Under the pieces are notes generated by a model. It did no database searches and was not told where the DNA came from. It saw only the letters and a list, made by a program, of their open reading frames with translations. Of a stretch of DNA of 64,000 nt, positions 1 through 19,836 are shown one piece after another. The position numbers were made by a program, and so were the translations under genes. The DNA comes from a virus (Duplodnaviria > Heunggongvirae > Uroviricota > Caudoviricetes). Each line of letters begins with the position of its first letter. The first letter of the stretch is position 1. The stretch lies in IMG/VR virus record IMGVR_UViG_3300042870_001966; one strand, written 5' to 3'.

Positions 1-254
1 GATACAAAAAATCTCTGTCGAAATGGGCAAAGGATTCAGTGAAAGGTGCAGTTAAATTCATTACTTCATTTGAAGATCAATTAGTTTATCAAGCAAAACG
101 CCGAGGTTGCAAAGGAGTTATATGCGGACACATACATAAACCTGAAAACCGAACGATTGATTCAATCCACTATCTTAACTGTGGAGATTGGATAGAAAAT
201 AACAGTTACATCATTTATGATAAAGGACATTTTAACCATTATAATTCCCTGTAA
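1..254 (+). CDS. calcineurin-like phosphoesterase, LpxH-like C-terminal fragment (5' truncated by window edge)
   Basis: Frame is open to position 1. GHIHKP and NCGDW motifs resemble the LpxH/MPP C-terminus. Confidence 0.5.
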   Translation, partial: YKKSLSKWAKDSVKGAVKFITSFEDQLVYQAKRRGCKGVICGHIHKPENRTIDSIHYLNCGDWIENNSYIIYDKGHFNHYNSL

Positions 255-921
255 GAACGAAGAGACTTACATAATTAAAACACTAGAATCAATTGAAAGA
301 CAGAAATATTCAGAGGGCTTACGAGTTATAATAGCTGATGCAAACTCAACTGACTCTACTCGGAGTTTAATCGAAGACTTTGCAACTGATAGTAAACTAT
401 GTGTTGAAATAATTGATGGAGGTCCAGTTGCAGTAGGCCGAAACACTGGAGCAGATTTAGTAACTACTGATTGGCTACTTTTCATAGATGCGGATACTCA
501 ATTACTAAATCATGAAACCTTATTTAATTGCGTCTACCATACCATCTTTGGAACTTACGATATAATAACGTGCACGGTTAAACCGGCTGAACCTAATGCT
601 AAAGTATGGATTGCACATAAGTTATTTAGAGTGACCCAAGCTATTTTACCGGAATCATTTTGCCCAGGAGTATTCTTCTTAATTAGAAAATCAACATACC
701 TGCAATTTGGTAAATTTGACGAGAGCGTGCAGCATTCAGAAGACTACTTATTATCTAGGAATATCAAAAAAGATAAGTTTTTAATATTACCAGACGGAGT
801 TACTCAAGACGATAGGCGTTTTAAAAAAATGGGTTACTTTGGAATGTTTAAATTTATATTCAATAATTACATTAATCGTAAAAACCTAGACCACTTTAGA
901 AAAAACATAAACTATTGGTGA
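217..921 (+). CDS. family 2 glycosyltransferase
   Basis: N-terminal IIIPCKNEE and DxD-type GT2 signature. Confidence 0.75.
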   Translation: MIKDILTIIIPCKNEETYIIKTLESIERQKYSEGLRVIIADANSTDSTRSLIEDFATDSKLCVEIIDGGPVAVGRNTGADLVTTDWLLFIDADTQLLNHETLFNCVYHTIFGTYDIITCTVKPAEPNAKVWIAHKLFRVTQAILPESFCPGVFFLIRKSTYLQFGKFDESVQHSEDYLLSRNIKKDKFLILPDGVTQDDRRFKKMGYFGMFKFIFNNYINRKNLDHFRKNINYW

Positions 922-943
922 TCAATTAAAGTACAATAACTAA

Positions 944-2086
944 ATGAATGTAAACCAAATAAAAACAGAAATTCTTTCAGGTTTAACTATTGCAATTGCT
1001 CTTGTACCTGAAGCAATTTCATTTGCTTTATTAGTCGGAGCTTCTCCTCAAATTGGATTATGGGCAGCAGTCTTCATGGCTCTGTCTACTGCAATATTCG
1101 GCGGAAGACCTGGTTTAATTAGTGGAGCGACTGGGGCAACTGCCGTAATTATGGCCGGCCTCGTATCAATTGCTGGAATTGAATCGCTTTTCCTTGGAGT
1201 AGTAGTTGCTGGAATTATTCAATTGATAATTTGGGCTTCAGGTGCATGGAAAATATTTAAAAAGATTCCGCCTTCTGCTATTTCAGGTTTCTTAATTGCA
1301 CTAGCGATTATGATTTTAGTAAGCCAGTTTAAATACTTAACTATCGGTAATCCATCTTCTACTGGCCTAATATTAACTATATCAACTATATTATTATGCG
1401 CAGCTGCAATGATATGGTCCTCACGGAAATTTAGTTTTCCTCCAGCGTTAGTGTCGATTACAGTTGGTTGCTTAATGGGAATTCCATTAGGCTTAGCGAC
1501 AGTCGGCGATCTATCGCCAGTAACCGCAAGCTTGCCAACGCTAGCTATCCCAACCTTTAGTTGGAGTCTGCTATTGACAGTCTTACCGTATTCATTCGGG
1601 ATGGCTGTGTCTGGCTTAACTGAATCTCTGTTGACTGTCGATACTGTGTCTCATAAATTAAATGAACACGGCGATAAAGCAAAAGAGACATTTGCTCAAG
1701 GGCTTGGTAATATAGTTAGCGGATTCTTTGGAACAATGGGAGGCTGCGTCCTAGTCGGACAGACTAATTTAAACGTAAATGCTGGAGCAAAGCATCGACT
1801 CTCTGGAATAGTTGCAGGGATTGGGCTCTCTCTAATTATTCTATTGTTTGGGAAATGGATTGAACAACTACCGCTAGTTGGATTAATTGGAGTAATGTTG
1901 GTAGTTGTATATCAAACTGGGGATTGGCAAAGCATAAAATCAGGAAATAAACTTAACTTATTGAGTATTATATTGACAGTTATTATTTCGTTAGCTACTC
2001 ATAACTTAGCAATCGGTGTAATCATCGGGTCAATTGTATTCTATTTTAGTAAATTAATATTAAAGCATGACACACGTAAAGAATAA
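944..2086 (+). CDS. SulP-family anion permease, transmembrane domain only (no STAS domain)
   Basis: ALVPEAISFALL(V/A)GASP SulP signature; polytopic membrane protein. Confidence 0.7.
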   Translation: MNVNQIKTEILSGLTIAIALVPEAISFALLVGASPQIGLWAAVFMALSTAIFGGRPGLISGATGATAVIMAGLVSIAGIESLFLGVVVAGIIQLIIWASGAWKIFKKIPPSAISGFLIALAIMILVSQFKYLTIGNPSSTGLILTISTILLCAAAMIWSSRKFSFPPALVSITVGCLMGIPLGLATVGDLSPVTASLPTLAIPTFSWSLLLTVLPYSFGMAVSGLTESLLTVDTVSHKLNEHGDKAKETFAQGLGNIVSGFFGTMGGCVLVGQTNLNVNAGAKHRLSGIVAGIGLSLIILLFGKWIEQLPLVGLIGVMLVVVYQTGDWQSIKSGNKLNLLSIILTVIISLATHNLAIGVIIGSIVFYFSKLILKHDTRKE

Positions 2087-3428
2087 AACAGTAACTGAAT
2101 ACTTAGATCAGGACTATGCGATGTACGGAATGTACACGTTAGAAAACCGGGCAATTCCTTCTGTAATAGATGGTTTCAAACCTACTCAGCGTAAAATCAT
2201 TTATATCTCAGATAAAGTCTGGAAATCAGGCAATGAAAAGCCATTAAAGATATTCCAGTTAGGTGGTAAGATCGCAGCAGATGCCCACTACCATCACGGT
2301 GACGGGTCTCTAAATGGTGCAATCATTGGGATGGCTCAGTCATTTAAGAATTCATTACCTCTTCTTGACGAGATAGGCCAGTTCGGATCTCTAAGATCTC
2401 CTGAAGCTGGTGCGGCTCGTTATATTTCAACTAAACTTACTGGAAATTTTAGACTTCTTTACAAGGATTTTGAATTGCTTGAGAATCAAGTCGAAGAAGG
2501 AAATACGATTGAACCTAAATTCTTCTTGCCAATTATCCCAACCGTTCTACTAAACGGAAGCTCAGGTATTGCAGTAGGATTTGCCACTAACATATTAAAT
2601 CGTAATCCATTAGACTTAGTAGACTCATGTCTTAAAGTATTAGATGGCAAGAAAATAGGCAAACTGCTTCCATGGTGGAGAGACTACATTGGCCCAGTCG
2701 AGTCAGTCGTTGGAACTAACCAGTACATTATGCGTGGAGTATACGAAGTTCTGAATACTACTACTGTCAAGATTACAGAGCTTCCGCCATCAATGACTTT
2801 TCAGAAATACGAAGTTCATTTGAATACTCTACAAGATAGAGGAATTATTGTTTCGTACGATGACAATTCTTCAAATGGAATCAACTACACTCTTAAATTT
2901 GCAAGAGCTACACTAGCTGACCTAATTGGAAAAGGCCGGCTCGACCAAACCCTTAAGATGATTGAGACTGAAACTGAGAACTTAACCTGCTTAAATGAAA
3001 AGGGCAAGCTTGCAATCTTTGAGGACATTACTCAAGTGGTAGATTACTTTGTAAACTTTAGATTAAGTTTCTATGATAAACGCAAAGCATTCTTAATCAA
3101 GAAGTACGGTGAAGAATTAATTTACTTATCGAACCGAGCTAAATTCATTAAGCTTATTATTGATGGTAAACTTAAAGTAAATAACGTTCCACGTAAAGAG
3201 ATCATTCTCTACCTGCAAACGGCAGACTTCGACGAAGTTAATGGATCGTATAACTACTTACTCAACATGCCAATCCACTCTCTGACTAAAGAAACTTACG
3301 AGCAATTATTGAAAGAAGTTGCTGATATTAAATCGCTATTAGTCGATATTAAAAAGAAGGATCCAACTGAGATGTATCGAGAAGATTTATTTGAGCTAAA
3401 GAAAAACCTAAAGTATTCTTCAAAGTAA
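2067..3428 (+). CDS. DNA topoisomerase II GyrA-like DNA-cleavage subunit (T4 gp52-like)
   Basis: RAIPSVIDGFKPTQRKI type IIA topoisomerase motif. Confidence 0.8.
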   Translation: MTHVKNKTVTEYLDQDYAMYGMYTLENRAIPSVIDGFKPTQRKIIYISDKVWKSGNEKPLKIFQLGGKIAADAHYHHGDGSLNGAIIGMAQSFKNSLPLLDEIGQFGSLRSPEAGAARYISTKLTGNFRLLYKDFELLENQVEEGNTIEPKFFLPIIPTVLLNGSSGIAVGFATNILNRNPLDLVDSCLKVLDGKKIGKLLPWWRDYIGPVESVVGTNQYIMRGVYEVLNTTTVKITELPPSMTFQKYEVHLNTLQDRGIIVSYDDNSSNGINYTLKFARATLADLIGKGRLDQTLKMIETETENLTCLNEKGKLAIFEDITQVVDYFVNFRLSFYDKRKAFLIKKYGEELIYLSNRAKFIKLIIDGKLKVNNVPRKEIILYLQTADFDEVNGSYNYLLNMPIHSLTKETYEQLLKEVADIKSLLVDIKKKDPTEMYREDLFELKKNLKYSSK

Positions 3429-3450
3429 AATAAAAATAAAGTAATCAACC

Positions 3451-4002
3451 ATGTTAAAATCATTTAGCCAATTCGTAACTGGATTATTTGAAAAGAAAGG
3501 AGACGCTCATAGTTATGGATGTGCAATGGTCTATTTCAATTTTCCAACAATGCCTGAACTGCATTCAAAAATAGATGAAGCAGATATCTACACAGAAGAG
3601 GGCGATCGTTCATACGGTCTTGAGGATGAACCTCATACAACTCTTTTATATGGACTTCATTCGGCAGATATTAATGACGCTAAGGTATTAGAGATATGTA
3701 AATCTAAACCAATCGGTCAACTGACTCTACATAATGCATCTCTATTTGAGAATGCTAAATACGATGTACTTAAGTTTGATGTAGAAAATCCAGTGTTGGC
3801 TGAGATTAATGCAGAACTTAGTAAGTTACCTCACACTACTGATTTCCCAGACTACCATCCACATGCAACAATCGGGTACCTAAAGCCTGGAACCGGCAAG
3901 AAATACGTTGACTTATTTAATGGTAATCGGCATGAAGTCGCTGCTCATAAAATAGTTTATTCAAAACCTGACGACAGTCGAATCGAAGAAGAATGGAATT
4001 AA
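3451..4002 (+). CDS. 2H phosphoesterase (LigT-like) with CTS-like N-terminus
   Basis: Two HxTx motifs (HTTL, HATI). N-terminus MLKSFSQFVTGLFE. Confidence 0.65.
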   Translation: MLKSFSQFVTGLFEKKGDAHSYGCAMVYFNFPTMPELHSKIDEADIYTEEGDRSYGLEDEPHTTLLYGLHSADINDAKVLEICKSKPIGQLTLHNASLFENAKYDVLKFDVENPVLAEINAELSKLPHTTDFPDYHPHATIGYLKPGTGKKYVDLFNGNRHEVAAHKIVYSKPDDSRIEEEWN

Positions 4003-4448
4003 TTAGTACATACATTTGCAAGCAAGGAGATATTGGTGTCCACAATAATATGTTTGGTGGAATTATCCTTTCTATTATTGACGATGCTGCTGCAAGTTAT
4101 GCATCTCAAATATGCGACACCCAACGAGTAGTAACCCTAAAAATTGACGAGCTGGTTTTTTCAAAGCCAGTAAAGGTCGGTAATATTATAAAAATATACG
4201 GATCAGTAAAGGCGTTTGGAACAACTTCAGTTACTCTATACATTGAAGTTCGTAAGCATAATGTTTACACTGGAGTTCAAACAGTAGTTACTCACACAAA
4301 TATAAAATTCGTTCGGATTGACGATGAGGGTAATTCCCTAGCAATTAGCGAAGGAGTCAAAGTTAGATACACTGATCGAGTTAAGGAATTCGGCAGAGCT
4401 CTACTTGATCCAGACGAAATGTCAACTCGTAAAAATAAAAACAAATAA
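3993..4448 (+). CDS. acyl-CoA thioesterase (hotdog fold)
   Basis: YciA-like hotdog pattern. Confidence 0.55.
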   Translation: MELISTYICKQGDIGVHNNMFGGIILSIIDDAAASYASQICDTQRVVTLKIDELVFSKPVKVGNIIKIYGSVKAFGTTSVTLYIEVRKHNVYTGVQTVVTHTNIKFVRIDDEGNSLAISEGVKVRYTDRVKEFGRALLDPDEMSTRKNKNK

Positions 4449-4626
4449 CATGATAACTCAAGAAATCTTAGACTCATTCGTTTATGAAACGCTTTCCGGA
4501 GAGTGGAACGTAACTGACCCTACTGAATTTGATCAGGTCCTAGTGGCAGGCCCATTTAAAACCAAAGAAGCAGCTGAAGCTGCTCTTATTGAATACGTTA
4601 AAGTAAATGAAATTACTTTCGAGTAA
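4405..4626 (+). CDS. hypothetical protein
   Basis: ORF only. Confidence 0.3.
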   Translation: MIQTKCQLVKIKTNNMITQEILDSFVYETLSGEWNVTDPTEFDQVLVAGPFKTKEAAEAALIEYVKVNEITFE

Positions 4627-5370
4627 TTAAAAGATATACTTTAAAAGAACTGACGCAGTTTCCTGAGAAGGATTAACTGAGTCTGTTATGTAATGAGGGT
4701 AACCTTGATAGCTATACGTATAAACTAATCCTATTTCTAAATTCTTTTTAATCTTAAGTGCGATTGTGTTTGTACTTCGCATGTTTAAATTATCTAGAAA
4801 AGAAACTTCTCTGCTTGAATAAATTGCTGGCTGAAATAGAGTAACTGACGAGATCTTAATCAATCCGCTTTCGTAATTTGCTCTAAGTCTAGATGATGCT
4901 CTTACTGTAAAGTTATTATTTGAAACCTTAATGCTGGACCAAAAATACTCTGGCAAAATTACTTCAGAGAAAACAATATCGAACTTCTTATTCTTGATAA
5001 TTGATACGCCTAATCCCAAACCAGCTGAGCTTCGAAGATCTATTTTTCTCATGTATGATCTCTCATCTTCAGTAAATCCAATAACTTTAAACTTACCTAT
5101 CTGTTTTGAAATATTTCCAGTCAAGTAGACTTCATTTTCGTACTGAGTCATTTCAGATTTTCCATACGCGGATTGCTTGCTCCAACGGTAAGTAGTATTT
5201 AGATTCCATTGATACGATCCAGTATCTCTTTTTAATTCAGCTTTCGTTGTAATACCAATTGCACTAAAGTTTCCCCTAGTTCCATCTCCTCCAACCGATA
5301 TTGATTTTTTAATTTGACTAAATACAGGTAATGAGACTGTCAGTAATAGTATCGTTAATATAAACTTCAT
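4627..5370 (-). CDS. secreted/outer-membrane beta-barrel-like protein
   Basis: Signal peptide ending VFSQ. Alternating C-terminal strand ending in Phe. Confidence 0.5.
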   Translation of the reverse strand: MKFILTILLLTVSLPVFSQIKKSISVGGDGTRGNFSAIGITTKAELKRDTGSYQWNLNTTYRWSKQSAYGKSEMTQYENEVYLTGNISKQIGKFKVIGFTEDERSYMRKIDLRSSAGLGLGVSIIKNKKFDIVFSEVILPEYFWSSIKVSNNNFTVRASSRLRANYESGLIKISSVTLFQPAIYSSREVSFLDNLNMRSTNTIALKIKKNLEIGLVYTYSYQGYPHYITDSVNPSQETASVLLKYIF

Positions 5371-5837
5371 TATTTGTTACGTGTATTTTTTAACTGTATT
5401 ATTTGGTTAACTGCATTTAGGAATAACCAGTCCTCGACATCAGTTAACTTACATAAAAAATTATATTCATGCATGTAACACATGAGCTCCTCTTCTCTTG
5501 CTGTAAACTTAATCAAGTTATTCCATAAGTACAGGTGATACGACTCATGCACCAATACGGCCGCTAAATTATTAATAGACGGACTAGTTACGTCCTTTGT
5601 ATTAATCACAATAGTATTGGGTGGAAGGTTAGTAGATCTATCGCCCATTATAAACTCAATTCGTTTACAATTCGTAATCAGAGTTTGGTAACTAACTGAG
5701 TCAGTATCTTTTACAAGTAAAATAGCCCTCTCGACTCTAGCCTTCCAGCCGTCTCCGACATCGTCTATTACTATTTGAGAAAATCCAAATACTGGAATCG
5801 TTAATATTAATACAATTAAGGCATTTTTAAAATACAT
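5370..5837 (-). CDS. secreted protein with HExxH motif
   Basis: Signal peptide; HESYH. Confidence 0.45.
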   Translation of the reverse strand: MYFKNALIVLILTIPVFGFSQIVIDDVGDGWKARVERAILLVKDTDSVSYQTLITNCKRIEFIMGDRSTNLPPNTIVINTKDVTSPSINNLAAVLVHESYHLYLWNNLIKFTAREEELMCYMHEYNFLCKLTDVEDWLFLNAVNQIIQLKNTRNK

Positions 5838-6289
5838 TGTTCAAGTGCTTTTTTGATAGAATTAGATACTGTCATTTTAGAAAACGGCATAGCACCCTCT
5901 TCCAATTCAATCATTACGGCTCTCACCTCAGTCTCAGACTCGCCAGTCCCTTCGTACTTTTGCCCGTTATAATAAATTCGAACAGCGACTTGTGTAACCT
6001 GCTCAGTCTTTTCTATTCCAGCAATACGTATGGTACTTTTAGGAATACCGAAATAATAGATCTCAATCTTAATTGGGGATCCTGCATCAGATAGACAGTA
6101 TTTAGAAGAAAGTAGGTCTTCTGCTATTTGCTTTACACCAAACCGAATATCACGGTTTCCTAATTCCCTAACCTTTGCGGTAGAATATACTGTGTCTATT
6201 TTAATACACATGTGAATTGGGCTAGTTTGCGAAAAAGCCAGCAGCTGTACCAATAGTAAAACTGCAAGCAATAAAATAAACTTCTTCAT
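5816..6289 (-). CDS. secreted protein
   Basis: Signal peptide MKKFILLLAVLLL..AFSQ. Confidence 0.45.
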   Translation of the reverse strand: MKKFILLLAVLLLVQLLAFSQTSPIHMCIKIDTVYSTAKVRELGNRDIRFGVKQIAEDLLSSKYCLSDAGSPIKIEIYYFGIPKSTIRIAGIEKTEQVTQVAVRIYYNGQKYEGTGESETEVRAVMIELEEGAMPFSKMTVSNSIKKALEQCILKMP

Positions 6290-6302
6290 CTTATAAAATT
6301 TA

Positions 6303-6584
6303 TTATTTTTTTAGTTCAATTATTGCATCCTCAACGTATTTATCACGTTGGTCTTGTAAGTATTGTATTCGATCGAGCATAATTTGTTTATCATCCTTTA
6401 CTGTTTGCTCAGTATAGGCTTTTTGTGCTTCATATAGTTTTTGCCAATACGCTACACGCTCTTCCATCATCACGCCTTGATACCAAATAACCGCTATCAT
6501 AAGTACGATGGTAAATGATTGTTCTTTTAGTTTAGAAAAGAAGGTATCCGTAAATCCTGAAGTAGGGTTTGTTTCTTCTGCCAT
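6303..6584 (-). CDS. small membrane protein
   Basis: One predicted TM helix. Confidence 0.4.
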   Translation of the reverse strand: MAEETNPTSGFTDTFFSKLKEQSFTIVLMIAVIWYQGVMMEERVAYWQKLYEAQKAYTEQTVKDDKQIMLDRIQYLQDQRDKYVEDAIIELKK

Positions 6585-6604
6585 ATTTAATTTGTTTTTT
6601 TTAT

Positions 6605-7783
6605 TTATTGTGTATAGCCAGTCCGTAACAGATAAAAGCTAGTAGTTCCTCCATTAGTTGGTGTTGAAATAATCATTGATTGAACTCCTGGTATACTGGA
6701 GCGTAGATCACTTGTCCCGGAATTAATAGTTGTCCATTGAGCTGGCGTAAATATCCGATACGACGGATATGCATTTATCCAATTTGGAAATCTACCTGAA
6801 ATTTTACCGAATATGCAATAGGAATCCGTTACATTAAACCGAGTATCTTGATTAACGTCCATTGTATAATACAATTTAGAGCTTGGCATCACCGAGTATA
6901 ATAACATTTGAATAGGGTATTGAGCAGCAGTTGATATTGGATTACTAATAGTCAGATTTTCTAATCTAATTTGGAAATCATGGGACGCGTCATCTAAATT
7001 AGGTACCATTGAATATAGACCCAACGAATTAGTGTAATATGTTCCCTTTATGCTGAATGTAGTTTCCGGTGAAGCTGGTGTAAATCTAACTGAATAATTA
7101 GTTGCGCTCCATTGAGATGCATTCTTTCCACCGACTGGAACAACCGTTGACGAAGAAGTTGATATTAGACCGGCGGTCGCGTTATTACTACCACATAAAG
7201 GTTTTGAGGCATAATTTATATCTATTAAATTCGACGTTTCATATAGAATGAACTGAAATGTGTGTAGATTTGTTCTACACCCATAATGCGGAACTGCATT
7301 AAAAGAGACAGTCAACGATCTATTGGGCGATGTTCCTGATGTTACGTATCTGATGTTAGCTGATCCAGGAAATAAGTCCTCCCAATCCGCTAAAATTGCG
7401 TTTAATGGAGACCCTGCATTTGGAATAAAGGCTGCAGTATATCCAGTTGTTTGGCCCGAGCTAAACCCGATCCATCCATTTGATCCAACGTAAAATTGAG
7501 TATACGTATTTCCAAAGTAGGTAAAACTAAATCCTATATTAAATGGTCCATGTGTAGCATCGTCCGATGATGGAATTACGGTACCGGTTGTATAACTAGG
7601 AGAAGTCGGATAAGTAGGAAAAGTTACTTCATATTGAACAATCCTTTTGCCGTATAGCAAGACTGGTATATTTTGTAAGCCTTGACCATTAGCTCCATAA
7701 ACATATCCTGAATAAGTAAATGGTTGAGCATACACCGACCCTATAATCAATGTAGCAATTAGTGTGATGATAAACTTTCTCAT
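6605..7783 (-). CDS. secreted protein
   Basis: Signal peptide ..VYAQ. S/T/Y-rich. Confidence 0.5.
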   Translation of the reverse strand: MRKFIITLIATLIIGSVYAQPFTYSGYVYGANGQGLQNIPVLLYGKRIVQYEVTFPTYPTSPSYTTGTVIPSSDDATHGPFNIGFSFTYFGNTYTQFYVGSNGWIGFSSGQTTGYTAAFIPNAGSPLNAILADWEDLFPGSANIRYVTSGTSPNRSLTVSFNAVPHYGCRTNLHTFQFILYETSNLIDINYASKPLCGSNNATAGLISTSSSTVVPVGGKNASQWSATNYSVRFTPASPETTFSIKGTYYTNSLGLYSMVPNLDDASHDFQIRLENLTISNPISTAAQYPIQMLLYSVMPSSKLYYTMDVNQDTRFNVTDSYCIFGKISGRFPNWINAYPSYRIFTPAQWTTINSGTSDLRSSIPGVQSMIISTPTNGGTTSFYLLRTGYTQ

Positions 7784-9450
7784 AATAGCATGCGAGTTCC
7801 CAGCATGATGGTATAGTTTAATGTGGATTCATTAATCGCCCAAGCTCCACCGGCGTTTATGTTAAGCTTAAATCGTTTAGTTATCCCGATATTAGTTCCC
7901 ATAATAGGTAAAACCACATGTGGTGATTTTAATAGAACATCATTATAGTAACTAACGTATGGGGCATACACGTACAAACATAACATTTTTACTGAAATTC
8001 TCTTAGAGATTTTCCAGTCATACATTCCTCCAGCAATAGCAGCAGTTCCTATAAAAGCAGTCCCTGATACTTGGCCGACTGAACCGGTTAGCATATAAAG
8101 AGCTTTTAGGTTTTTCGGCTTATTTAGAGTCCACATTTGACCTACTGCTAATGTTCCATAGACAGTCATTTGTCTTTCAAAACCAATAGTAAGCGATGTA
8201 GAGATTAAATCTATTCTTCGCTTATTCATGAATGCATAAAAGCCTGTAATATTTGGACCCTTTATAGCAGTCGTATAGTCTGCACTAATTCCGTGAGATC
8301 TCTTTCCGTCCCATCTCATTGATGAGTAACCTCCAGTGACCTTTCCTCCAACTGTAACATCTGAATTTTTAAAATTGAATCCAACGAAATCGCTGCTTGC
8401 TAAAATACTAGGTCGATTCCCATTTTTATTAGAGGCACCGGCTGCTCCTCCACCTGCGGAAGTTGATTCCTGTACTGAACCAACTGATCCGCCAATTAAG
8501 TTAGTTTTTCCACCTGCTTCTGTTTCAGAAGTTGGCGTTGACTGATTATTTGAGCCGCTTGTTCCAGAGCCAGCGGTCGTTCCAGACCCGCCTCCATTAA
8601 CATTGCCGCTATTTGAAGTTGATCCGCTAGCTTGAGATCCGGTAGTTCCGTTGCCGGTTGTTGATCCGCTTCCGGTAGTTGAGCCGGTCGTTGAACCGCT
8701 TCCGGTAGTTGAGCCGGTCGTTGAACCGCTTCCAGTGGTTGATCCACCTGCTTGAGACCCAGAGGTTCCATTGCCAGCTTGAGACCCAGCTGTTCCGTTA
8801 CCGGCAGTTGATCCTGGTTCTCCAGATCCTCCGCTGCTTGTCGAGCCAGTTTCGTTCGAACCTTGAGTCTGTGAGCCCTGTGTCGTAGAAGATCCACTAC
8901 TGCTAGTAGAGCTCCCATTGTTACTAGTGGTCCCAGAGTTAGAGCTACCACCAGTACTTCCATTAGATTGTGCATTTGTTGAAGTACTATTTTCTGCAGG
9001 TTTATCCGCCCCGCCTTTATTTTTGGAGTTACCCTTTGACTTGGAGGAATTTTGTACACTAGAGACAGTTCCGCCAATCATATTACTTGATCCGCCAGCC
9101 ATATCAGATAGAGCCGATAATGAGTTTACTATTCCTAGAAAACTAATTGCTGTATTTTGTGCTATATTAACTGAAGTAGGCATTCCTACTAAACTTGCAC
9201 ATGGGTTGTTATTACCAAAGGAAGAATAAACGCCTTGAGCCCATGTCTCAAAACCTCCATTGTAAAAATCCGTTGGTTGAAATGTATTTACTTGACCGTA
9301 ATAGGTTACTGTTATTCCGTTTGATGGAACTTGTATTGTTTTGTTTATTCCAGTACATGGATCAGTGTAATTGTAGGAAAAGGTTTGAGCCATTCCCAAT
9401 GACGATACTAAGATCCACGCAATAAGCAGTATAATTTTTTTAACATACAT
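7780..9450 (-). CDS. secreted protein with long Ser/Gly/Thr/Asn-rich tandem-repeat region
   Basis: Signal peptide ..GMAQ. GSTTGSGSTTG repeats encoded by a DNA tandem repeat. Confidence 0.55.
   Translation of the reverse strand: MYVKKIILLIAWILVSSLGMAQTFSYNYTDPCTGINKTIQVPSNGITVTYYGQVNTFQPTDFYNGGFETWAQGVYSSFGNNNPCASLVGMPTSVNIAQNTAISFLGIVNSLSALSDMAGGSSNMIGGTVSSVQNSSKSKGNSKNKGGADKPAENSTSTNAQSNGSTGGSSNSGTTSNNGSSTSSSGSSTTQGSQTQGSNETGSTSSGGSGEPGSTAGNGTAGSQAGNGTSGSQAGGSTTGSGSTTGSTTGSGSTTGSTTGSGSTTGNGTTGSQASGSTSNSGNVNGGGSGTTAGSGTSGSNNQSTPTSETEAGGKTNLIGGSVGSVQESTSAGGGAAGASNKNGNRPSILASSDFVGFNFKNSDVTVGGKVTGGYSSMRWDGKRSHGISADYTTAIKGPNITGFYAFMNKRRIDLISTSLTIGFERQMTVYGTLAVGQMWTLNKPKNLKALYMLTGSVGQVSGTAFIGTAAIAGGMYDWKISKRISVKMLCLYVYAPYVSYYNDVLLKSPHVVLPIMGTNIGITKRFKLNINAGGAWAINESTLNYTIMLGTRMLL
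8676..8741. repeat. direct tandem repeat (about 30-33 bp x2+) inside gene 7780..9450
   Basis: tccggtagttgagccggtcgttgaaccgct is repeated. It encodes GSTTGSGSTTG. Confidence 0.7.
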
Positions 9451-9464
9451 TTGCGTTTCATATT

Positions 9465-10184
9465 TTAATTTTTGAAGATATTCTTCTTAATCATTCTCAC
9501 CACTATCCTAGACGATGCTGTCTCTAACGCCTTTTTAGTTGTAATACCAATGGTAGATTGGTTAAATTTAATTTCACTATCGTCCACTCCATCTAAAATA
9601 GAAACGGTTTTAATAGTGGAAGCTTCGCCTAATCCTGAACCAACTAGAACTTCTCCAGTCTCAGCATCAACGAATTTTACCTGTAAACCCAGTCGAGTTG
9701 TTTGAGTTGTTTTAGACTCGCCGTTTATTCTAACGACTTCATCTTCTGATACAGAGAAATCGTAAACTTCAATATAGACAAAGTATTTTGCTAACTTGAT
9801 TTTACCACGGCCGTCTAGTTTATTCTCAGTGAATCCTTTATCAGACGCTTTAAATTGACTAATCATTCTCTCTTTAATTTCAAGTTTGTCTTCAGTAAAT
9901 ACAAAACGGTTTGTGTATTCCAAATATTCCAATACAATATTTGTTACACCAAGACCAACCCGTTTATCCTTTAACTCAGGATACATTTCGTAAAGCTCCT
10001 CATTAATTCCAATCTTTAATAATTGAATAGGAATTTTAATTGTGTCAGTATATTCCGGAACAGAGTCAATTGACATCTTCTTTTCAAAAGAAGCTCGGTA
10101 CTGCTCAGTCTTGATTGAACCAGGCTGAGCAATACATAAGCTTACTGAGAAAAGCATTATTAAGATAAGTGCTAATCTCTTCAT
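9465..10184 (-). CDS. secreted lipoprotein-like protein
   Basis: Signal peptide ..SLCIAQ. Confidence 0.5.
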   Translation of the reverse strand: MKRLALILIMLFSVSLCIAQPGSIKTEQYRASFEKKMSIDSVPEYTDTIKIPIQLLKIGINEELYEMYPELKDKRVGLGVTNIVLEYLEYTNRFVFTEDKLEIKERMISQFKASDKGFTENKLDGRGKIKLAKYFVYIEVYDFSVSEDEVVRINGESKTTQTTRLGLQVKFVDAETGEVLVGSGLGEASTIKTVSILDGVDDSEIKFNQSTIGITTKKALETASSRIVVRMIKKNIFKN

Positions 10185-10186
10185 GA

Positions 10187-10549
10187 TTATTCGGTTACGT
10201 TATTTGAAGTAGTATTAGAAAGAGATACTCCATCTTCTTCGTCAACCTTTTGAATTAACATTTTATCACGATCTTCTGAATTGAACCAGTAGTCAACTAC
10301 TTTATTTAGGTTACCAACAAAGGCTCCCAATAAAAGAAGTAGTAATTCTTTCCAATCTTCTGCGATTGTTACTCCAAAAAATACAGCTGAATTAATTCCA
10401 GCAATAATAAAGAAGAAAAGAAATAGAACGATTCCTGTAATTTTCCAACGGTTTGACTGCATTTGTTGTAGCATGTAGTAGAAGCGATTCTTGTCTTCAA
10501 CCTTTACGTATGCAGATTCACCGATTAATAATTTTTTCAAATTAGACAT
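10187..10549 (-). CDS. membrane protein
   Basis: Two hydrophobic helices. Confidence 0.45.
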   Translation of the reverse strand: MSNLKKLLIGESAYVKVEDKNRFYYMLQQMQSNRWKITGIVLFLFFFIIAGINSAVFFGVTIAEDWKELLLLLLGAFVGNLNKVVDYWFNSEDRDKMLIQKVDEEDGVSLSNTTSNNVTE

Positions 10550-10574
10550 TGTAGTAGTAGTTTATTTTTAGTTC

Positions 10575-10607
10575 TGAAAATAAAAAGGCGGACGTTAATC
10601 CGCCTTC
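10575..10607 (-). terminator. rho-independent terminator (minus strand)
   Basis: AAGGCGGA..TCCGCCTT hairpin with T-run on the minus strand. Confidence 0.6.
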
Positions 10608-10610
10608 TGA

Positions 10611-10952
10611 TTACCAAGGAGCGTCTTCAGACTCGCTCTTCTTCTTTTCCGCTGGTTTTTCAGCTGGAGCTTTCTCAACAACTCTCTCACGGATTACTGT
10701 GTTAGTTCCGCCTGATTGTTTTTGTTGATTTGTATTATTGTTTTCAAGATTAACGTTGATAACTGGTTGAGCTGCTGGTGCAACCTGTTCAGTTTTCGTT
10801 TCTTCTTTTTCATGGTCACCTCCGTTAAATAGAGTAGTTGTAAGCCATGTACCTCCAGCTAAAACTGCCGTAGAGATCGTACCGATCAGGGTCTTCTTAA
10901 GACCTGACCATGTTCCATCATTTGTTTCTGCTGCGTTTGTTTCCTCAGACAT
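10611..10952 (-). CDS. small membrane-anchored protein
   Basis: One TM segment. Terminator lies downstream. Confidence 0.4.
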   Translation of the reverse strand: MSEETNAAETNDGTWSGLKKTLIGTISTAVLAGGTWLTTTLFNGGDHEKEETKTEQVAPAAQPVINVNLENNNTNQQKQSGGTNTVIRERVVEKAPAEKPAEKKKSESEDAPW

Positions 10953-10959
10953 TGTTTGT

Positions 10960-12882
10960 TTATTTTTTTATGATTTTAGTAGAGTTAATTTGATCAACTG
11001 CCTGTAAAGAAGCAACGTATAATCCGCTAGTTAACTGATTAATATTGGAAGAGTATACGTATTTTCCAGCTGGCATGTCTTGATCAAGTATAACAAATTG
11101 TTCTGATCCGTTTAGGTCAACGATTACTAACTTAACCATTCCGCTATTCTTAACTGAGAAGTCAAAGCTTATCTCTCCAGTAGTTGGATTGGGAAATGCG
11201 GTAATTTCAAAGTTATCCAATTGACCAGAAGGTCCAGCCATTTTAGCAACGATTAAGATGCCGTTTGCTGCGGTGATTGATAAATCCCTAGATTGATTGT
11301 CTCCTGAGAATTTTCTAGAAGTATACAAAGGCGATGCCTCCCAATCAATTTGAGGTTTAAGTGCGATAAATCTCAATTTAAAAACTTCATAATTATCTGG
11401 AATCATGTAGCTTTTGTTAGCTGATGGATCGTAACCGGCCCATTCGATAATTCCGCCAGTTGGATTGAATGAAGACATCCACTGCATTGATTTAGCAGAG
11501 TTAGTAATGTCTTTAAATTCCAATAAGGTCTGATCGTATAACATTGCTAATTGAAGAGACGAAATATCCTTTCCTCCAGTTTTAACAGTAACCGGTATTT
11601 CTACTAGATTTCCTGAATTTACAGAAAGATTAGGAAGATTAACTTCAATTGAGCTCGTTGGAAAATCGTATTCAACTGTCATATCAATTACGTTTTCAGT
11701 TTGAGCTGGGGTTCCAGCCGGTGGATTGATCATTACTTCAATTGGCGTTAAACGAGCCATGTTGTAACCCGTACCGTTTGCATCTCCTGGAACAAGTACG
11801 TAATATTGAACTGAATCAGGTTGTCCTGGTAAAATGTCGTAGTAGAAGTTTGTTACTCCAGCATAAGTTGAAGTATAGTTAGTCGATGGAGATCCTGTGA
11901 TTGTTGTGTATTGGGCAGCAGTAAAGAACTTAACATCCTCAACGGCATTAGGCCATTCAGTGAATCTTCCAGCAATTCTACCAAATACTCCGTATGCATC
12001 AGTTATTGTTACGTTAGTTGAACCGTTAACATCTGCTGTATAGAAGTCGAATCCGGAAGGAGTCGCTGACCCTAACACCCATTGATTAATTAATTGAGCA
12101 TCTGCTGTTGATATAACGTTTCCTACCGTCATCGTATCACCTTTAATTGCAAGGCGTACATCATAATAAGTAGTATCAATAATTTCGCTAAATGCAAAAT
12201 TTCCACTTAGGTCAGTTACGTACGTATCATGAGTTCCCCAAGTACCTCCAGCTTTTACCTTTTTCTCAAGAGCTAAAGTTAAGTTCTTTGCTCCAGTTCC
12301 AGTAACGTTTGTAAATTTACCATGGAAGTCTAAAGTAGGCTGTTCCCATACACCGCCGTAGCTATGCTTGCTTAGAGTAGTATCTAAACCTGTCTGAGAT
12401 GCAGCGAGTGTAGTAAAAGAAGCTGCGCCACTAAACGTAAGAGCACTGATTGAGGGTAACGCATAAAACGATGCAGCTGCAACGTGAGTAAAGGTTATTT
12501 CAAAGGTTTCACCGTCCGCTAGAGTATAAGTACTGCTGTTTCCAGTATACACTAATGAAAGGGTTACGTAACCGGTAGCATTACTATCTACTGACTGTAA
12601 ATATAAGTTAGTAGGCGATCCAACTAGCGCAACTGATGCACTAGCAAATGCATCCTTATCGTAAAATATTCGAGTTTGAATACCTGTGTATTTTGAGATA
12701 GTTGCATTCTTTAGCGTGATTCTGGCTTTGGACTGACCTAGCGTACTTGTACCAACTTGATATGTCGTATCAATGATTGTCCAAATTCCTGCGCCTGGGG
12801 CAGGAGGTCCACTTTGAGCATAAACTCCAGTAGAGAGTGCGCACGTGACTAGTGCGAATAGAATAAAGATTATTTTTTTCAT
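10960..12882 (-). CDS. secreted protein with T9SS C-terminal sorting domain
   Basis: Signal peptide ..VYAQ. C-terminal FPNPTTGEISF...SGLYVASL...KIIKK matches the type-A T9SS C-terminal domain. Confidence 0.65.
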   Translation of the reverse strand: MKKIIFILFALVTCALSTGVYAQSGPPAPGAGIWTIIDTTYQVGTSTLGQSKARITLKNATISKYTGIQTRIFYDKDAFASASVALVGSPTNLYLQSVDSNATGYVTLSLVYTGNSSTYTLADGETFEITFTHVAAASFYALPSISALTFSGAASFTTLAASQTGLDTTLSKHSYGGVWEQPTLDFHGKFTNVTGTGAKNLTLALEKKVKAGGTWGTHDTYVTDLSGNFAFSEIIDTTYYDVRLAIKGDTMTVGNVISTADAQLINQWVLGSATPSGFDFYTADVNGSTNVTITDAYGVFGRIAGRFTEWPNAVEDVKFFTAAQYTTITGSPSTNYTSTYAGVTNFYYDILPGQPDSVQYYVLVPGDANGTGYNMARLTPIEVMINPPAGTPAQTENVIDMTVEYDFPTSSIEVNLPNLSVNSGNLVEIPVTVKTGGKDISSLQLAMLYDQTLLEFKDITNSAKSMQWMSSFNPTGGIIEWAGYDPSANKSYMIPDNYEVFKLRFIALKPQIDWEASPLYTSRKFSGDNQSRDLSITAANGILIVAKMAGPSGQLDNFEITAFPNPTTGEISFDFSVKNSGMVKLVIVDLNGSEQFVILDQDMPAGKYVYSSNINQLTSGLYVASLQAVDQINSTKIIKK

Positions 12883-12900
12883 CGAAGAACATTTGTTTTT

Positions 12901-13725
12901 TTATTTTAATAAAGCGTAATACTCGTTAAAGTGTTTAATACGGTCAGCCAAACCAATCGTTCCACCATTAACTCTCTTAGTTACCGCAGTTACAGCAGCA
13001 GTGTCTGCTCCTTTATCACAAATCGCCCATAAGCCATTAGACTGAAAAAAGAAAGCAGCCGATGCGAGTGGGTATTTTGTAGCGACTAGATCCGGATTAG
13101 CAACAGTATCCTCGCCGATAAATTTTGCAAAGTTTGTGTAATTCGATTTACCAGTCAATTGAATGTAACCGCGACCTCTGAATTTAAAACCTTCTTTCGA
13201 AGCTTCATCTCCATTACCCATTCTAGAAGCATACACTCTAGCAGCGATTTTTTCAGGTTGACGAGCATAAGACTCGTTTAAGTTACCAGGAAAATACTTT
13301 CCGAAGATCTTTTTAAGACCGTCAGCTGAATAGTTTAGATTCTCGTTAACTGCTTTGAATCCTCCACTTTCGTGTCCACATTGCGCAAGGAAGTGAGCTA
13401 ATCTTAAAGGATTAGTGATTCCGAATTTTGCAGCTGTGTCAGGAATTTGAGCGATTACTGCTGCTGGTACATGTCCAGCTAGTTTTTCAAGTTTAAAACT
13501 TGATGGTGGGATTGGCGTAGCTGCTGGAGCTGCAACTGGAGCTGCACCAAACATCTTAGCCCAAGTAGCATCTCCGACGATACCGTCAGGAGTAAGCCCG
13601 TTTGCTTGCTGCCATGCTTTGACAGCGGTTTCTGTTCCAGGTCCGAAGCTTCCATCTGCGCCTACTCCTAGGAGTGCTTGCATTTTGGCAACCTCTGGGC
13701 CATTAGATCCATTCTTTAATAGCAT
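12901..13725 (-). CDS. endolysin: PG_binding_1 domain plus GH19/chitinase-like lysozyme domain
   Basis: Peptidoglycan-binding repeat; LAQCGHESGGF catalytic region. Confidence 0.7.
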   Translation of the reverse strand: MLLKNGSNGPEVAKMQALLGVGADGSFGPGTETAVKAWQQANGLTPDGIVGDATWAKMFGAAPVAAPAATPIPPSSFKLEKLAGHVPAAVIAQIPDTAAKFGITNPLRLAHFLAQCGHESGGFKAVNENLNYSADGLKKIFGKYFPGNLNESYARQPEKIAARVYASRMGNGDEASKEGFKFRGRGYIQLTGKSNYTNFAKFIGEDTVANPDLVATKYPLASAAFFFQSNGLWAICDKGADTAAVTAVTKRVNGGTIGLADRIKHFNEYYALLK

Positions 13726-16903: not shown

Positions 16904-16991
16904 GGAGGATTGGCAGAGTGGTCGATCGCGGCAGTCTTGAAAACTGTTGTACCGCAAGGTACCGTAGGTTCGAATCCTACATCCTCCGCCA
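16904..16991 (+). tRNA. tRNA-Ser(TGA), type II, CCA encoded
   Basis: Manual fold: acceptor GGAGGAT/ATCCTCC, anticodon loop CTTGAAA, long variable arm, T-loop TTCGAAT. Confidence 0.75.
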
Positions 16992-17007
16992 AAAAAATCA
17001 ATAAACA

Positions 17008-17196
17008 ATGGGACTATTCGGAGCAATCGCTAATATAGCAAGCGCAACAGTAAAAACAGCATTGTCACCAATCGCAGTCGTAAAGGATGCAGTTGACGTG
17101 GCAACCGGTGGCGAAGCTACCGCAACAAAGGATTTAATAAACTCGGTCGGCGAAGACTTATCTGACGCAGTCGATGAGGTAGTTGATCCTTATTAA
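17008..17196 (+). CDS. small hypothetical protein
   Basis: ORF after tRNA-Ser. Confidence 0.3.
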   Translation: MGLFGAIANIASATVKTALSPIAVVKDAVDVATGGEATATKDLINSVGEDLSDAVDEVVDPY

Positions 17197-17210
17197 AAAA
17201 ATAACAGTAT

Positions 17211-17909
17211 ATGTTAATTAAAAATCAAACGCCATACCTTGGCAAAATTCAGTTGAAGTTCGAGAGATTTCCTCACTACACTGGCAAAACTAAATTAAAT
17301 AAGATCCACTTGGATCTGGGATTTACTAAGTTAGTAAGCCGAATCCGACCTGAAAGAGATTTGGAAGGTTGGGCTGTAAATCCTGAATGTATTAAACAAA
17401 TTGAAGCAACTACTGGGCTAAAGGTAGGAGTTCATAAGTTCGGACCAGACGATGAGTACTCATTACCCAATTCATGCATGAATCCAGACGGAGTTTACGT
17501 TGGATCAATTGAAGAAGGTTGGTGGTACTACAACAATGGCCTCAGAGCAACAAAGGGATCTCATCCTCATACTGCATGGAGTAAGAAGGCAAAGCAGTGG
17601 ATTGGTTATTCTCACCGTGCTTCTTGTGCATTCGGAAAAGGCGATAAACTATTTGATGCTAAATGGAAACCTGCTGAACAAGACCTTCCTCAATACGAAA
17701 AGTTCTACGGCAAGCACCTGGACTCGTATTATAAAGAGTGCGAAGAATGGGCAAAGAGTACCTCTGACCATAAAGCGTCAGAAGAAGAAATGACCCTTGC
17801 TGGTTGGGCAGTAGATCATATTCCTTTTAGACTACGTGGTGCTAAGACAATTCATTCGTATGAAGATGCTTACAAGGCAGCAGTTAACTTTGCAAAATAC
17901 GTATCGTAA
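17211..17909 (+). CDS. hypothetical protein
   Basis: ORF only. Confidence 0.5.
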   Translation: MLIKNQTPYLGKIQLKFERFPHYTGKTKLNKIHLDLGFTKLVSRIRPERDLEGWAVNPECIKQIEATTGLKVGVHKFGPDDEYSLPNSCMNPDGVYVGSIEEGWWYYNNGLRATKGSHPHTAWSKKAKQWIGYSHRASCAFGKGDKLFDAKWKPAEQDLPQYEKFYGKHLDSYYKECEEWAKSTSDHKASEEEMTLAGWAVDHIPFRLRGAKTIHSYEDAYKAAVNFAKYVS

Positions 17910-18166
17910 TGGCAAAAGGCTCTATATTAAATGCACTAAAGAACGAGGCGGACATGAAACGTCTCGTTCTTGAGTTTACTGAGAAATTAGAACATGACCC
18001 GTACCAACCGGGGCTAGTTCATCCGGAAGTCTATCCGGACGATGTTCAGGAAGTACTTGAAGATCTACTGTGGATTAGGGGATTCGATGAAGCGACTATC
18101 AGAGTTAGAAAGAATCCAGATGGAGTATCTGTATCAGTAGAAGTTTTGGGCAGAACTAAGGGATAA
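17909..18166 (+). CDS. hypothetical protein
   Basis: ORF only. Confidence 0.45.
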   Translation: MAKGSILNALKNEADMKRLVLEFTEKLEHDPYQPGLVHPEVYPDDVQEVLEDLLWIRGFDEATIRVRKNPDGVSVSVEVLGRTKG

Positions 18167-18187
18167 ATAATAAAAATAAGATCCCTA

Positions 18188-18739
18188 ATGAAACTTAAGA
18201 GATTTTCACAATTTGTAAAAGAGAGCTTGATAACAGAATCTTCGTCAGTTATTGAAGTTGAAGAAAATATATTCTTAATAGACGAAATAATCTACATAAT
18301 TTGGCTTGTTACACTAGACGTATCTTTCGATTATGAGCCTGACGATAGCAGTGTCGGATTCGTTGGCGGCTATTCAGTTGATGATGTTGACTTTGATGGA
18401 GTAGACGGAGTGTATAAAGTAACTGATCCTTCAGTAATTTCGCAGGTTAAAGCCATGCTAGATTCCCCTGAAGCTGAAGAGTTAAAAAGCATGGGATTTG
18501 AAGGAGCTGATGAATATGCAGCAATTGGCGATTTAATATACGATGCAGAGCAAGAAGAAATTACAGGAGAAGAGCTCAAGGACTTCATTAATAAATTCAA
18601 AGCTCTTTACGATTCAAATACTCTAGTCGATTTAACTGGTACTTTCAAAAAAAGAACTGACTCTGCTCTCGATAGAGCGGTTGAGGATTTTGAACCTGAT
18701 GAGCCTGACTACGATGATTACGACGATGATCGTTATTAA
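18188..18739 (+). CDS. acidic protein with CTS-like N-terminus (MKLKRFSQFVKE)
   Basis: Shares N-terminal motif with 18766, 40926, 43623 and 63082. ATAAATAA lies upstream. Confidence 0.55.
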   Translation: MKLKRFSQFVKESLITESSSVIEVEENIFLIDEIIYIIWLVTLDVSFDYEPDDSSVGFVGGYSVDDVDFDGVDGVYKVTDPSVISQVKAMLDSPEAEELKSMGFEGADEYAAIGDLIYDAEQEEITGEELKDFINKFKALYDSNTLVDLTGTFKKRTDSALDRAVEDFEPDEPDYDDYDDDRY

Positions 18740-18765
18740 TAAATAAACAAAAATTACTTTTTAAA

Positions 18766-19329
18766 ATGAAACTTAAAAGATTCACACAATTTGTTAACGA
18801 AGCAAAGATTAACGAAGCTCAAATCAAAGATAAAACTATCGTTGCTAAGCTTGATAGAATTCACGAAATCAAAACTCGATTAAAAGAATTGACAGCTGAA
18901 ACAAAAGCTATCAATACTGAGCTTGGTGCATTTGATGCAACAATGAAGCCGATCTTTGATGCAATGAAAGTCCTAAATGATAAGCTTGCAACAACTGAAA
19001 AATACGTTATCAAGATTTCAAGATACGGCGGATCTTCTGAAAACCCATCTTATGCTAAAGCTGTAGAGCAGGCACTAGGGTTAGTCGATGCTGCTGCTCA
19101 AGCAATTATCAACGAATGTGTTAGACAAAACACAGCAATATCAAACGTAAAACACTCATACGATATTGAAAAACTAGATGAATCTAAATTAACTGATAAA
19201 GCTAAAGCGATCGTTGCTAGGTTGTCTGGTAAAATCACAGCAATCGTTGCCAAGTTAAAGTCTTTCTTTGAGTCTAAATTCTCTAAGATCGATCAAGCAA
19301 ACGAAAAACTTGCAGCAATGATAAAGTAA
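18766..19329 (+). CDS. coiled-coil protein with CTS-like N-terminus (MKLKRFTQFVNE)
   Basis: Paralogous N-terminus. Confidence 0.55.
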   Translation: MKLKRFTQFVNEAKINEAQIKDKTIVAKLDRIHEIKTRLKELTAETKAINTELGAFDATMKPIFDAMKVLNDKLATTEKYVIKISRYGGSSENPSYAKAVEQALGLVDAAAQAIINECVRQNTAISNVKHSYDIEKLDESKLTDKAKAIVARLSGKITAIVAKLKSFFESKFSKIDQANEKLAAMIK

Positions 19330-19362
19330 TTTTTAGTAAAGGGAAACCTTTTTTAAAAAGTT

Positions 19363-19373
19363 GGTATAATAAC
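19363..19373 (+). promoter_or_regulatory. GGTATAATAAC motif upstream of leader and tRNA array
   Basis: Same motif. Confidence 0.45.
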
Positions 19374-19562
19374 TAGATAAATAACTAGACAAAAAAATTA
19401 AACTCGTGCAAATAACTACGAACATATCAAAAAATACTCAAAACTGGAATCAGTATCCGGCAGGCACAGTTAATGTGATTGCAATGGAGACGATTAAAGA
19501 TTTTGGGGTATTGCGAGGTTCTAGTGGTATAAGTTAAGAAATTACATAACTAACAACAACGA

Positions 19563-19597
19563 ACCTCGAACCTAAAAAATTCGAGGTTTTTTGTTTT
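19563..19597 (+). terminator. rho-independent terminator upstream of tRNA array
   Basis: CCTCGAAcct..TTCGAGG followed by TTTTTTG. Confidence 0.6.
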
Positions 19598-19602
19598 AGC
19601 AT

Positions 19603-19830: not shown

Positions 19831-19836
19831 CTAAAC

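Follow-up and report, generated by a model that had tools for sequence, protein, structure and literature searches.

The gene considered here lies near the start of a 64,000-nucleotide stretch of viral DNA (IMG/VR record IMGVR_UViG_3300042870_001966, Caudoviricetes), hereafter the window, at positions 944-2086 on the plus strand. It is an ATG-to-TAA open reading frame (ORF) of 380 codons (the coordinates include the stop codon), and its product is a member of the SulP/SLC26 family (PF00916; TC 2.A.53) by its membrane domain, with an atypical architecture that has no STAS domain. PF00916 (Sulfate_transp) is the sole Pfam domain found in the protein and is matched with 137 bits, well above the curated cut-off of 23.2 (E 9.4e-40). 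The best match among solved structures, by sequence as well as by fold, is SLC26Dg of Deinococcus geothermalis (PDB 5da0; membrane domain 5iof; dimer model 8zzv), which phmmer finds at E 1.6e-62 with query residues 8-365 aligned to residues 23-382 of the chain; the corresponding value for the cyanobacterial transporter BicA is 8e-28, and a profile of the clade to which the viral protein belongs matches SLC26Dg at E 4e-83. The SulP assignment made in the initial annotation, a family transporter without STAS, is thus borne out. In NCBIfam all matches are below threshold: 125 bits against a cut-off of 380 for the generic sulP model, 117.8 against 880 for the BicA equivalog NF050096 and 94.2 against 614 for the DauA equivalog NF008660. 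No PHROGs family matches the protein.

An AlphaFold2 model built on 38 relatives (pLDDT 87.3, pTM 0.86) has 14 transmembrane (TM) helices and superposes on the SLC26Dg membrane domain (5iof, chain A) with a Foldseek TM-score of 0.87/0.88 and a root-mean-square deviation of 2.8 Å over 375 columns, at 35% identity. TM-scores against most of the remaining solved SLC26 structures in the list are 0.80-0.86. The predicted structure shows the 7+7 inverted-repeat fold, and the short β-strand plus half-helix elements that are a hallmark of the family are seen at residues 60-77 (TM3) and 268-279 (TM10). The TM3 element, GGRPGLISGATGATAVIMAGLVSIA (1100-1174, plus strand), is assigned by DSSP a β-strand at residues 60-61 and a half-helix at residues 64-77 of the model; it contains 13 invariant positions in alignment A1 and aligns with the counterpart stretch of SLC26Dg. 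In the TM10 element, GGCVLVGQTNLNVN (1739-1780, plus strand), the model has a β-strand at residues 268-269 and a half-helix at residues 271-279. TM14 and a short basic tail, KHDTRKE, close the protein (2006-2083, plus strand), which ends about 8-10 residues past the last helix with no linker and no STAS after it. TM14 forms the membrane dimer interface of SLC26 proteins, where a GxxxG-like motif occurs (PMC6497670); the viral helix has a GxxxG motif at G358-G362, and the invariance of both glycines in the clade is consistent with dimerisation. The gene is predicted from this model to encode a complete SulP/SLC26 membrane domain with both termini in the cytoplasm. TM topology and alignment to SulP structures, suggested in the initial annotation as checks, both return the whole 14-TM core, and its fear of a pseudogene fragment devoid of the TM3 and TM10 half-helices is dispelled, given that both half-helices are present in the model and in the alignment.

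The absence of STAS was examined in several ways. Neither of the two Pfam STAS models, PF01740 and PF13466, matches the 380-residue protein. A hidden Markov model built from the C-terminal tails of 75 cellular homologues, which scores two cellular controls at 210-217 bits, found nothing in the six-frame ORFs of the window and of 17 viral loci (best E 0.14), and this search led us to reject a STAS domain encoded by a split gene in the window. All 80 cellular ORFs examined measure 457-554 residues and continue for 92-144 residues past the match, whereas the 11 ORFs examined on viral contigs measure 371-415 residues; Pfam detects STAS in each of four scanned cellular examples and in none of six viral ones. 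Loss of STAS is not unique to viruses and is tolerated in cells too. P0130 (398 residues) and P0298 (399 residues) are short SulP proteins on bacterial-type contigs that, like the viral protein, contain PF00916 only, but the tree places them apart from the viral clade, and they therefore represent independent losses.

Among 7450 matches retrieved from a set of 5.8 billion proteins, the best 120 share 59-94% identity with the window protein, contain PF00916 only and measure 371-386 residues, except for one truncated entry of 311 residues. In a search of representatives, one for each 50% cluster, the entire group appears as a single entry (513 bits) and the next match drops to 267 bits at 44% identity. 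All contexts examined were viral-type contigs, of 12-180 kb in IMG/VR and of 171, 170 and 217 kb in metagenomes; the protein of the 171-kb contig recurs on a contig of up to 263 kb. The window itself is identical (100% match) to the end of IMGVR_UViG_3300042567_002119. Pattern scans with the single protein retrieved from IMG/VR only that identical contig and one relative; the genome collection gave no match, and an alignment was needed to find more. No member of the clade was found in 185,579 species-representative bacterial and archaeal genomes, where the 220 relatives detected do not exceed 42% identity; the best of these belong to Halothiobacillus, Cellvibrionaceae, Vibrio and others, with no Bacteroidota in the top 80 of the 220. 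Identities of cellular SulP homologues to the window protein lie at 35-42%. A tblastn search of GenBank phages gave only matches of at most 38% identity, in unannotated or mixed records that resemble cellular contamination. In BFVD there is no phage match, and the only SLC26-like entry is a Megaviridae protein of 707 residues that contains STAS and shares 14% identity. A literature search found no report of a SulP in a phage, a giant virus or any other virus. In the collections searched, every occurrence of the STAS-less lineage is on a metagenome contig that is of virus type or unassigned (jumbo phages, giant viruses), and none is in a bacterial or archaeal genome.

Purifying selection acts on the gene. 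Two pairs with unsaturated synonymous divergence (dS) gave ratios of non-synonymous to synonymous substitution (dN/dS) of 0.107 (dS 0.36) and 0.113 (dS 0.47). The word truncated, applied to the protein in the initial annotation, is misleading in this respect: the gene belongs to a stable STAS-less lineage of about 371-391 residues with dN/dS of about 0.11, and is not a recently clipped host gene.

Several characterised proteins help to place the viral one. SLC26Dg shares with it the 7+7 TM arrangement and the motifs P-E-A-I-x-F in TM1, G-L-x-E-S in TM8 and G-Q-S/T in TM10, and the construct 5iof, engineered without STAS, has essentially the architecture that the viral protein has naturally. 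Native SLC26Dg differs in having a C-terminal STAS domain whose removal compromises transport (PMC6497670). The viral protein in turn has VLV instead of AMI at the entry of TM10, and its TM12-TM13 loop is three residues shorter. BicA, a Na+-dependent bicarbonate transporter (6ki1), resembles it in family, in fold (Foldseek 0.81-0.83) and in the presence of an acidic residue in TM8, but this residue is Asp rather than Glu, the TM1 and TM10 motifs read P-M-A-L-A-F and A-T-M-G-T, and STAS is present. DauA (YchM), the C4-dicarboxylate SulP of Escherichia coli, has the same kind of membrane domain but also carries STAS, and the viral protein is far from being a DauA equivalog.

The substrate pocket of the viral protein appears to be of the SLC26Dg type. 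Its E23, F27, E227 and G272-Q273-T274 match the E-F-E-GQS set of SLC26Dg. The TM1 motif P-E23-A-I-S-F27 (1007-1024, plus strand) is the counterpart of PEAIAF in SLC26Dg and of Q112/Y116 in AtSULTR4;1, and E23 and F27 are invariant across the phage clade. G272-Q273-T274 in TM10 corresponds to G-Q-S in SLC26Dg and to S392-R393-S394 in AtSULTR4;1. More generally, no variation is seen within the clade at E23, F27, S60, G61, E227, G272 and Q273, and SLC26Dg and the nearest cellular homologues have the same residues. Cation-coupled symporters of the SLC26Dg, SULTR and BicA types have an acidic residue in TM8 near the substrate site that acts in H+ or Na+ coupling (PMC8298490). In the viral protein this position is taken by E227 (codon 1622-1624, plus strand), which aligns with the Glu of GLLES in SLC26Dg, with Glu347 of AtSULTR4;1 and with the Asp of CIDAL in BicA, and which is a candidate for coupling to a cation, H+ in particular. 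It is invariant in all 16 phage sequences and all 14 of the giant-virus branch, and is found in 50 of the 51 nearest other sequences.

SLC26Dg is an H+-dependent fumarate transporter (PMC8298490). Because the viral pocket is of this type, we rank a C4-dicarboxylate-like anion first: with low confidence, and judging from pocket residues, the substrate may be a small organic or inorganic anion of this kind, slightly ahead of sulfate and bicarbonate. The initial annotation had proposed sulfate or bicarbonate, which is not supported over other anions, given that the closest characterised relative is a fumarate/H+ symporter and the pocket resembles that of this relative. The Arg or Lys with which TM10 starts in eukaryotic sulfate transporters (SULTR, SLC26A1/2; Arg393 in AtSULTR4;1) is absent, and Gln273, invariant in the clade, stands in its place. 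The scores for BicA and DauA are far below the equivalog cut-offs.

The window clearly belongs to a large phage. Its genes include those for a portal, a DNA polymerase, a primase, a helicase, an RNA ligase, a Lon-like protease and a split topoisomerase II. Megablast of positions 1-12000 against GenBank phages gave no match; the portal is nearest to those of uncultured huge phages (41.7%) and of Prevotella Lak phages (34.5%). We tentatively consider the host to be a member of the Bacteroidota, because of a type IX secretion system (T9SS) sorting domain in the window, the distant similarity of the portal to Lak phages and a SusC-like gene in a relative. That gene, at 2225-4711 of L001 (the 171-kb phage contig that carries the SulP protein P0031), encodes an 828-residue SusC-like TonB-dependent outer-membrane receptor (CarboxypepD_reg, Plug and TonB_dep_Rec). 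It precedes the SulP gene of L001 by a few kb, which gives this phage two genes of the transporter type.

Upstream of the SulP gene, and separated from it by a gap of 22 nucleotides, is a GT2 glycosyltransferase gene (217-921, plus strand; PF00535, E 2.4e-21). It is preceded by the 3' end of a calcineurin-type metallophosphoesterase gene (1-254, plus strand) that runs off the window start and is seen as a partial ORF at 39-254; the whole enzyme is present at 4601-5311 of locus L006 (236 residues, PF00149, E 1e-11). Downstream, the end of the SulP gene overlaps by 20 nucleotides (2067-2086, plus strand) the start of the gene for the A subunit of topoisomerase II (2067-3428, plus strand), which is GyrA-like and of T4 gp52 type (PF00521, E 1.1e-82; phrog_551, E 3.6e-143). 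A similar overlap or abutment is found in L001, L003, L005, L007, L010 and L013. Counting abutment of the two genes in general, the list comprises L001, L003-L005, L007, L010, L011 and L013; in L017 they are about 2 kb apart, and in L008, L009 and L016 they do not abut. Read through L006, the gene order is GyrB-like topoisomerase II subunit (611 residues), orf127, metallophosphoesterase, GT2, SulP and GyrA-like subunit, and in the 171-kb relative SulP stands alone between the two topoisomerase genes. The initial annotation had described a block with a GT2 gene and an LpxH-like phosphoesterase. The pair does adjoin SulP and the GT2 assignment holds, but the phosphoesterase is only weakly LpxH-like (its best NCBIfam match, LpxH, reaches 47.5 bits against a cut-off of 134), and the most relevant context is the split topoisomerase II operon rather than this pair. 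A scan of positions 1-4700 for sigma-70 promoters and terminators gave results at chance level, this type of scan being unsuited to promoters of the Bacteroidota type.

The position of the SulP gene next to topoisomerase II is not a fixed one. In a scan anchored on the A subunit, which covered 74 related phage loci with 60-89% identity in this subunit and sought SulP within 6 kb, only four loci carried the gene, and most of the others had the GyrB-like gene directly upstream of the A subunit gene. Identities to the window are also incongruent between SulP and the A subunit, at 92 and 82% in L003 and at 73 and 88% in L010. SulP as a core, vertically inherited partner of the A subunit was rejected on these two grounds; SulP is instead an accessory gene of patchy occurrence whose slot is variable, and related phages have probably exchanged it. 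Viral genes lie on both sides (the GyrB-like gene upstream in L006, the A subunit gene downstream, portal and polymerase within the window), and the gene is outside the core set of its lineage and homologous to a cellular transport gene. The description as a phage auxiliary gene, made in the initial annotation, has been confirmed in the sense of an accessory gene.

The spacer between the topoisomerase II subunit genes varies among the related loci (L107-L186) from direct abutment through about 0.5 kb to as many as four genes, and seems to be a hot spot where accessory genes accumulate, such as those for SulP, GT2, metallophosphoesterase and orf127. The A subunit gene itself shows some irregularities. 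At 1663-3037 of L004, which is one assembly of the 92%-identical relative, it is split into two ORFs (290 and 154 residues) and is intact in the sibling contigs L003 and L005; the split is probably a frameshift or an assembly error. At 7124-9880 of L007 (IMGVR_UViG_3300042549_009448), the gene is interrupted at HHGD/S by an intein-like sequence, which starts with CLDPNTEILL, ends with IVTHN before the serine and is broken into ORFs around one of 324 residues (7687-8658). The arrangement resembles an intein that is split or has degenerated, together with a free-standing insert. A break after residue 79 of the A subunit, as in L007, is also present in L127 and L179.

STAS-less proteins with 31-44% identity to the window protein are also encoded on contigs of giant-virus type. 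P0126 has as neighbours an intein-containing Rpb1, PCNA and DUF5856; P0121 lies near a K+ channel, a photolyase, NDC10_II and DUF5872; L019 adjoins Rpb2, and L018-L021 are GVMAG contigs of IMG/VR. Contig context was verified for six of the 14 sequences of this branch. The contexts of P0133 and P0162 were too short for classification. In a neighbour-joining tree (105 sequences, 378 columns; distance methods only, with sparse eukaryotic cellular sequences) the phage clade of 16 taxa has a bootstrap of 100, and together with the 14 proteins of the giant-virus branch it forms a clade of 30 taxa, again with a bootstrap of 100, whose members all have at most 430 residues and which is nested among STAS-bearing cellular proteins. 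With Dayhoff-6 recoding the 30-taxon clade was recovered in 56 of 60 replicates and the phage clade in 60 of 60. Compositional attraction, considered as a cause of the grouping, is countered by the support that the larger clade keeps after recoding.

Two further characters mark the viral proteins. One is a three-residue deletion after residue 332 in the loop between TM12 and TM13 (1916-1960, plus strand), common to the phage and giant-virus branches: the deleted columns are filled in 0% of phage sequences, 7-21% of those of the giant-virus branch and 96% of 75 outside sequences, and the deletion also shows as a gap against SLC26Dg. The other is the motif at the entry of TM10, which reads GGC-VLV-GQ in the viral clade and GGC-AMI-GQ in cellular proteins. 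We tentatively propose that a single virus-adapted, minimal STAS-less SLC26 lineage, marked by the loss of STAS, the three-residue deletion and VLV, has been passed between giant viruses of eukaryotes and jumbo phages. Both would have kept it because their hosts, though very different, meet a common anion bottleneck once infected, and it would work with full efficiency without STAS, outside the control of the host. We regard this proposal as possible rather than probable. Giant viruses are known to encode other polytopic transporters, for ammonium (AmT), phosphate (permeases), TauE/SafE substrates and Fe2+/Mn2+, which are likewise presumed to reshape nutrient uptake (PMC7136201, PMC7162819), but the surveys that list them include no SulP/SLC26 (PMC7136201, PMC7162819), and the gene of the window is in a bacteriophage.

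As regards function, we hold with moderate confidence that the gene encodes a working SLC26/SulP secondary anion transporter that dispenses with STAS and is expressed from the phage as a cation-coupled importer. The gene would be co-transcribed with the topoisomerase II and replication genes, and its product would be inserted into the cytoplasmic membrane of the host during infection. There, an elevator-type movement of the core domain (TM1-4 and TM8-11) would carry the anion past the gate domain (TM5-7 and TM12-14), with import coupled to a cation, most likely H+ through the invariant Glu227. The lack of STAS would mean that host inputs acting through this domain are not received, and uptake would therefore be set by the expression programme of the phage.

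A membrane domain can work without STAS: that of SLC26Dg retains its fold and its ability to dimerise via TM14 when STAS is removed, with weaker transport (PMC6497670). Several points weigh against the proposed function. Engineered deletions of STAS reduce the activity of both SLC26Dg and AtSULTR4;1 (PMC6497670, PMC8298490), so that more uptake through deregulation is not a given. The suggestion in the initial annotation that a deregulated permease could boost precursor supply is an inference. A separate gene for a STAS-like partner may exist outside the 64 kb examined. The direction of transport, import or export, is taken by analogy from homologues. The substrate is not readable from sequence, since no residue pattern predicts selectivity in SLC26 proteins (PMC8298490). 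Companion genes for sulfur assimilation, carbonic anhydrase or C4 metabolism are absent from the Pfam census of the window, and the neighbours of 80 cellular homologues give no hint of a substrate either, showing only lineage-specific synteny (glyoxalase, a cNMP-binding protein, aceE/aceF, RNase E).

An uncoupled leak, a channel or an exporter, which would alter membrane potential, cytoplasmic pH or the osmotic state and might serve lysis timing, superinfection exclusion or the removal of a toxic or by-product anion, is an unlikely alternative that nevertheless has some basis. Some SLC26 proteins are channel-like, SLC26A9 being a known chloride channel (PMC8298490), constructs engineered without STAS show weaker coupled transport, and the lineage-wide change from AMI to VLV at the entry of TM10 could alter gating. 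However, the TM8 coupling Glu and the entire pocket are conserved exactly as in cellular homologues of symporter type, uncoupled transporters of the SLC26A9 type do not have that acidic residue (PMC8298490), and the AlphaFold2 model gives no sign of an open pore. It seems highly unlikely that the viral protein acts instead as a modulator of a host SulP, the STAS-less protomer forming heterodimers via TM14 that poison or unlock the host SLC26. SLC26 dimers do form through TM14 without STAS and their protomers interact functionally (PMC6497670), and G358 and G362 of TM14 are invariant in the clade, but a mere dimerisation decoy needs no substrate pocket, and here the full pocket is strongly conserved. 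Moreover, no cellular SulP found exceeds 42% identity, the best 80 cellular matches include no Bacteroidota, and direct evidence for such a role is lacking. A further reading, in which the gene is a remnant or pseudogene left by a captured host gene, or comes from host DNA wrongly assembled into a viral contig, is hardly credible. In its favour, the nearest cellular homologues are longer by about 120-140 residues, but the pseudogene reading is effectively refuted by dN/dS of about 0.11, the model with its complete 14-TM core and the Foldseek superposition, while the uniform length of the 120 best relatives bar the truncated entry, the position between phage genes with a conserved A subunit overlap in several independent assemblies and the lack of a close relative in any cellular genome scanned also argue against it.

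Other features of the window deserve mention. It contains 26 tRNA genes (16904-22561, 36465-36545 and 42429-43356), 18 of them at 19603-22561 and six at 42429-43356, and the first of these two arrays accounts for a local peak in GC content of 0.506 at 20-22 kb. Two candidate counter-defence genes were noted: a 2H-phosphoesterase/Acb1-like gene directly downstream of the topoisomerase II A subunit gene (3451-4002), with a weak score of 25 bits that is below the cut-off, and a homologue of the anti-Thoeris gene Tad6 (17211-17909; Pfam E 5.5e-22), placed at 17217-17906 on the basis of its similarity to the L001 gene. The region 4627-13725 on the minus strand encodes mostly proteins with signal peptides, including a DUF481 protein (4627-5370) and a 556-residue low-complexity protein rich in Ser, Gly and Thr (7780-9450). 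Secreted-type proteins with Cohesin and T9SS C-terminal sorting (Por_Secre_tail) domains are encoded at 10960-12882 and 6605-7783, both on the minus strand, and PA14/GLEYA domains also occur in the Pfam census of the window as a whole. The Lon-like ATP-dependent protease is at 50749-52731 (phrog_4871, E 1e-250), a protein like phosphoribosyl pyrophosphate synthetase at about 28430-29359 and a nucleotidyltransferase of the CCA/polyA-polymerase type at 32807-33544. The census further lists ClpP, a SET-domain protein, a TnsA-like endonuclease and dTDP-sugar enzymes (an RmlC-like epimerase and an NAD-dependent epimerase/dehydratase).

The SulP family and its fold are well known; what is new is a virus-associated lineage without STAS, its presence in jumbo phages and an apparent link to giant viruses. 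Polytopic secondary transporters appear to be rare in phages. With a conserved transporter lineage that is known solely from virus-type or unassigned contigs, the concept of virocell nutrient acquisition would cover jumbo phages as well as giant viruses, and there would be a tangible example of a gene shared by bacterial and eukaryotic viruses. If it does work with full efficiency without STAS, the viral lineage would represent the natural minimal form of the SLC26 family. The finding bears on the role of STAS, given that engineered deletions of this domain impair transport and yet a membrane-only version of about 380 residues has apparently long been kept in nature. Such a compact SulP is an attractive minimal model for studies of structure and mechanism in this family.

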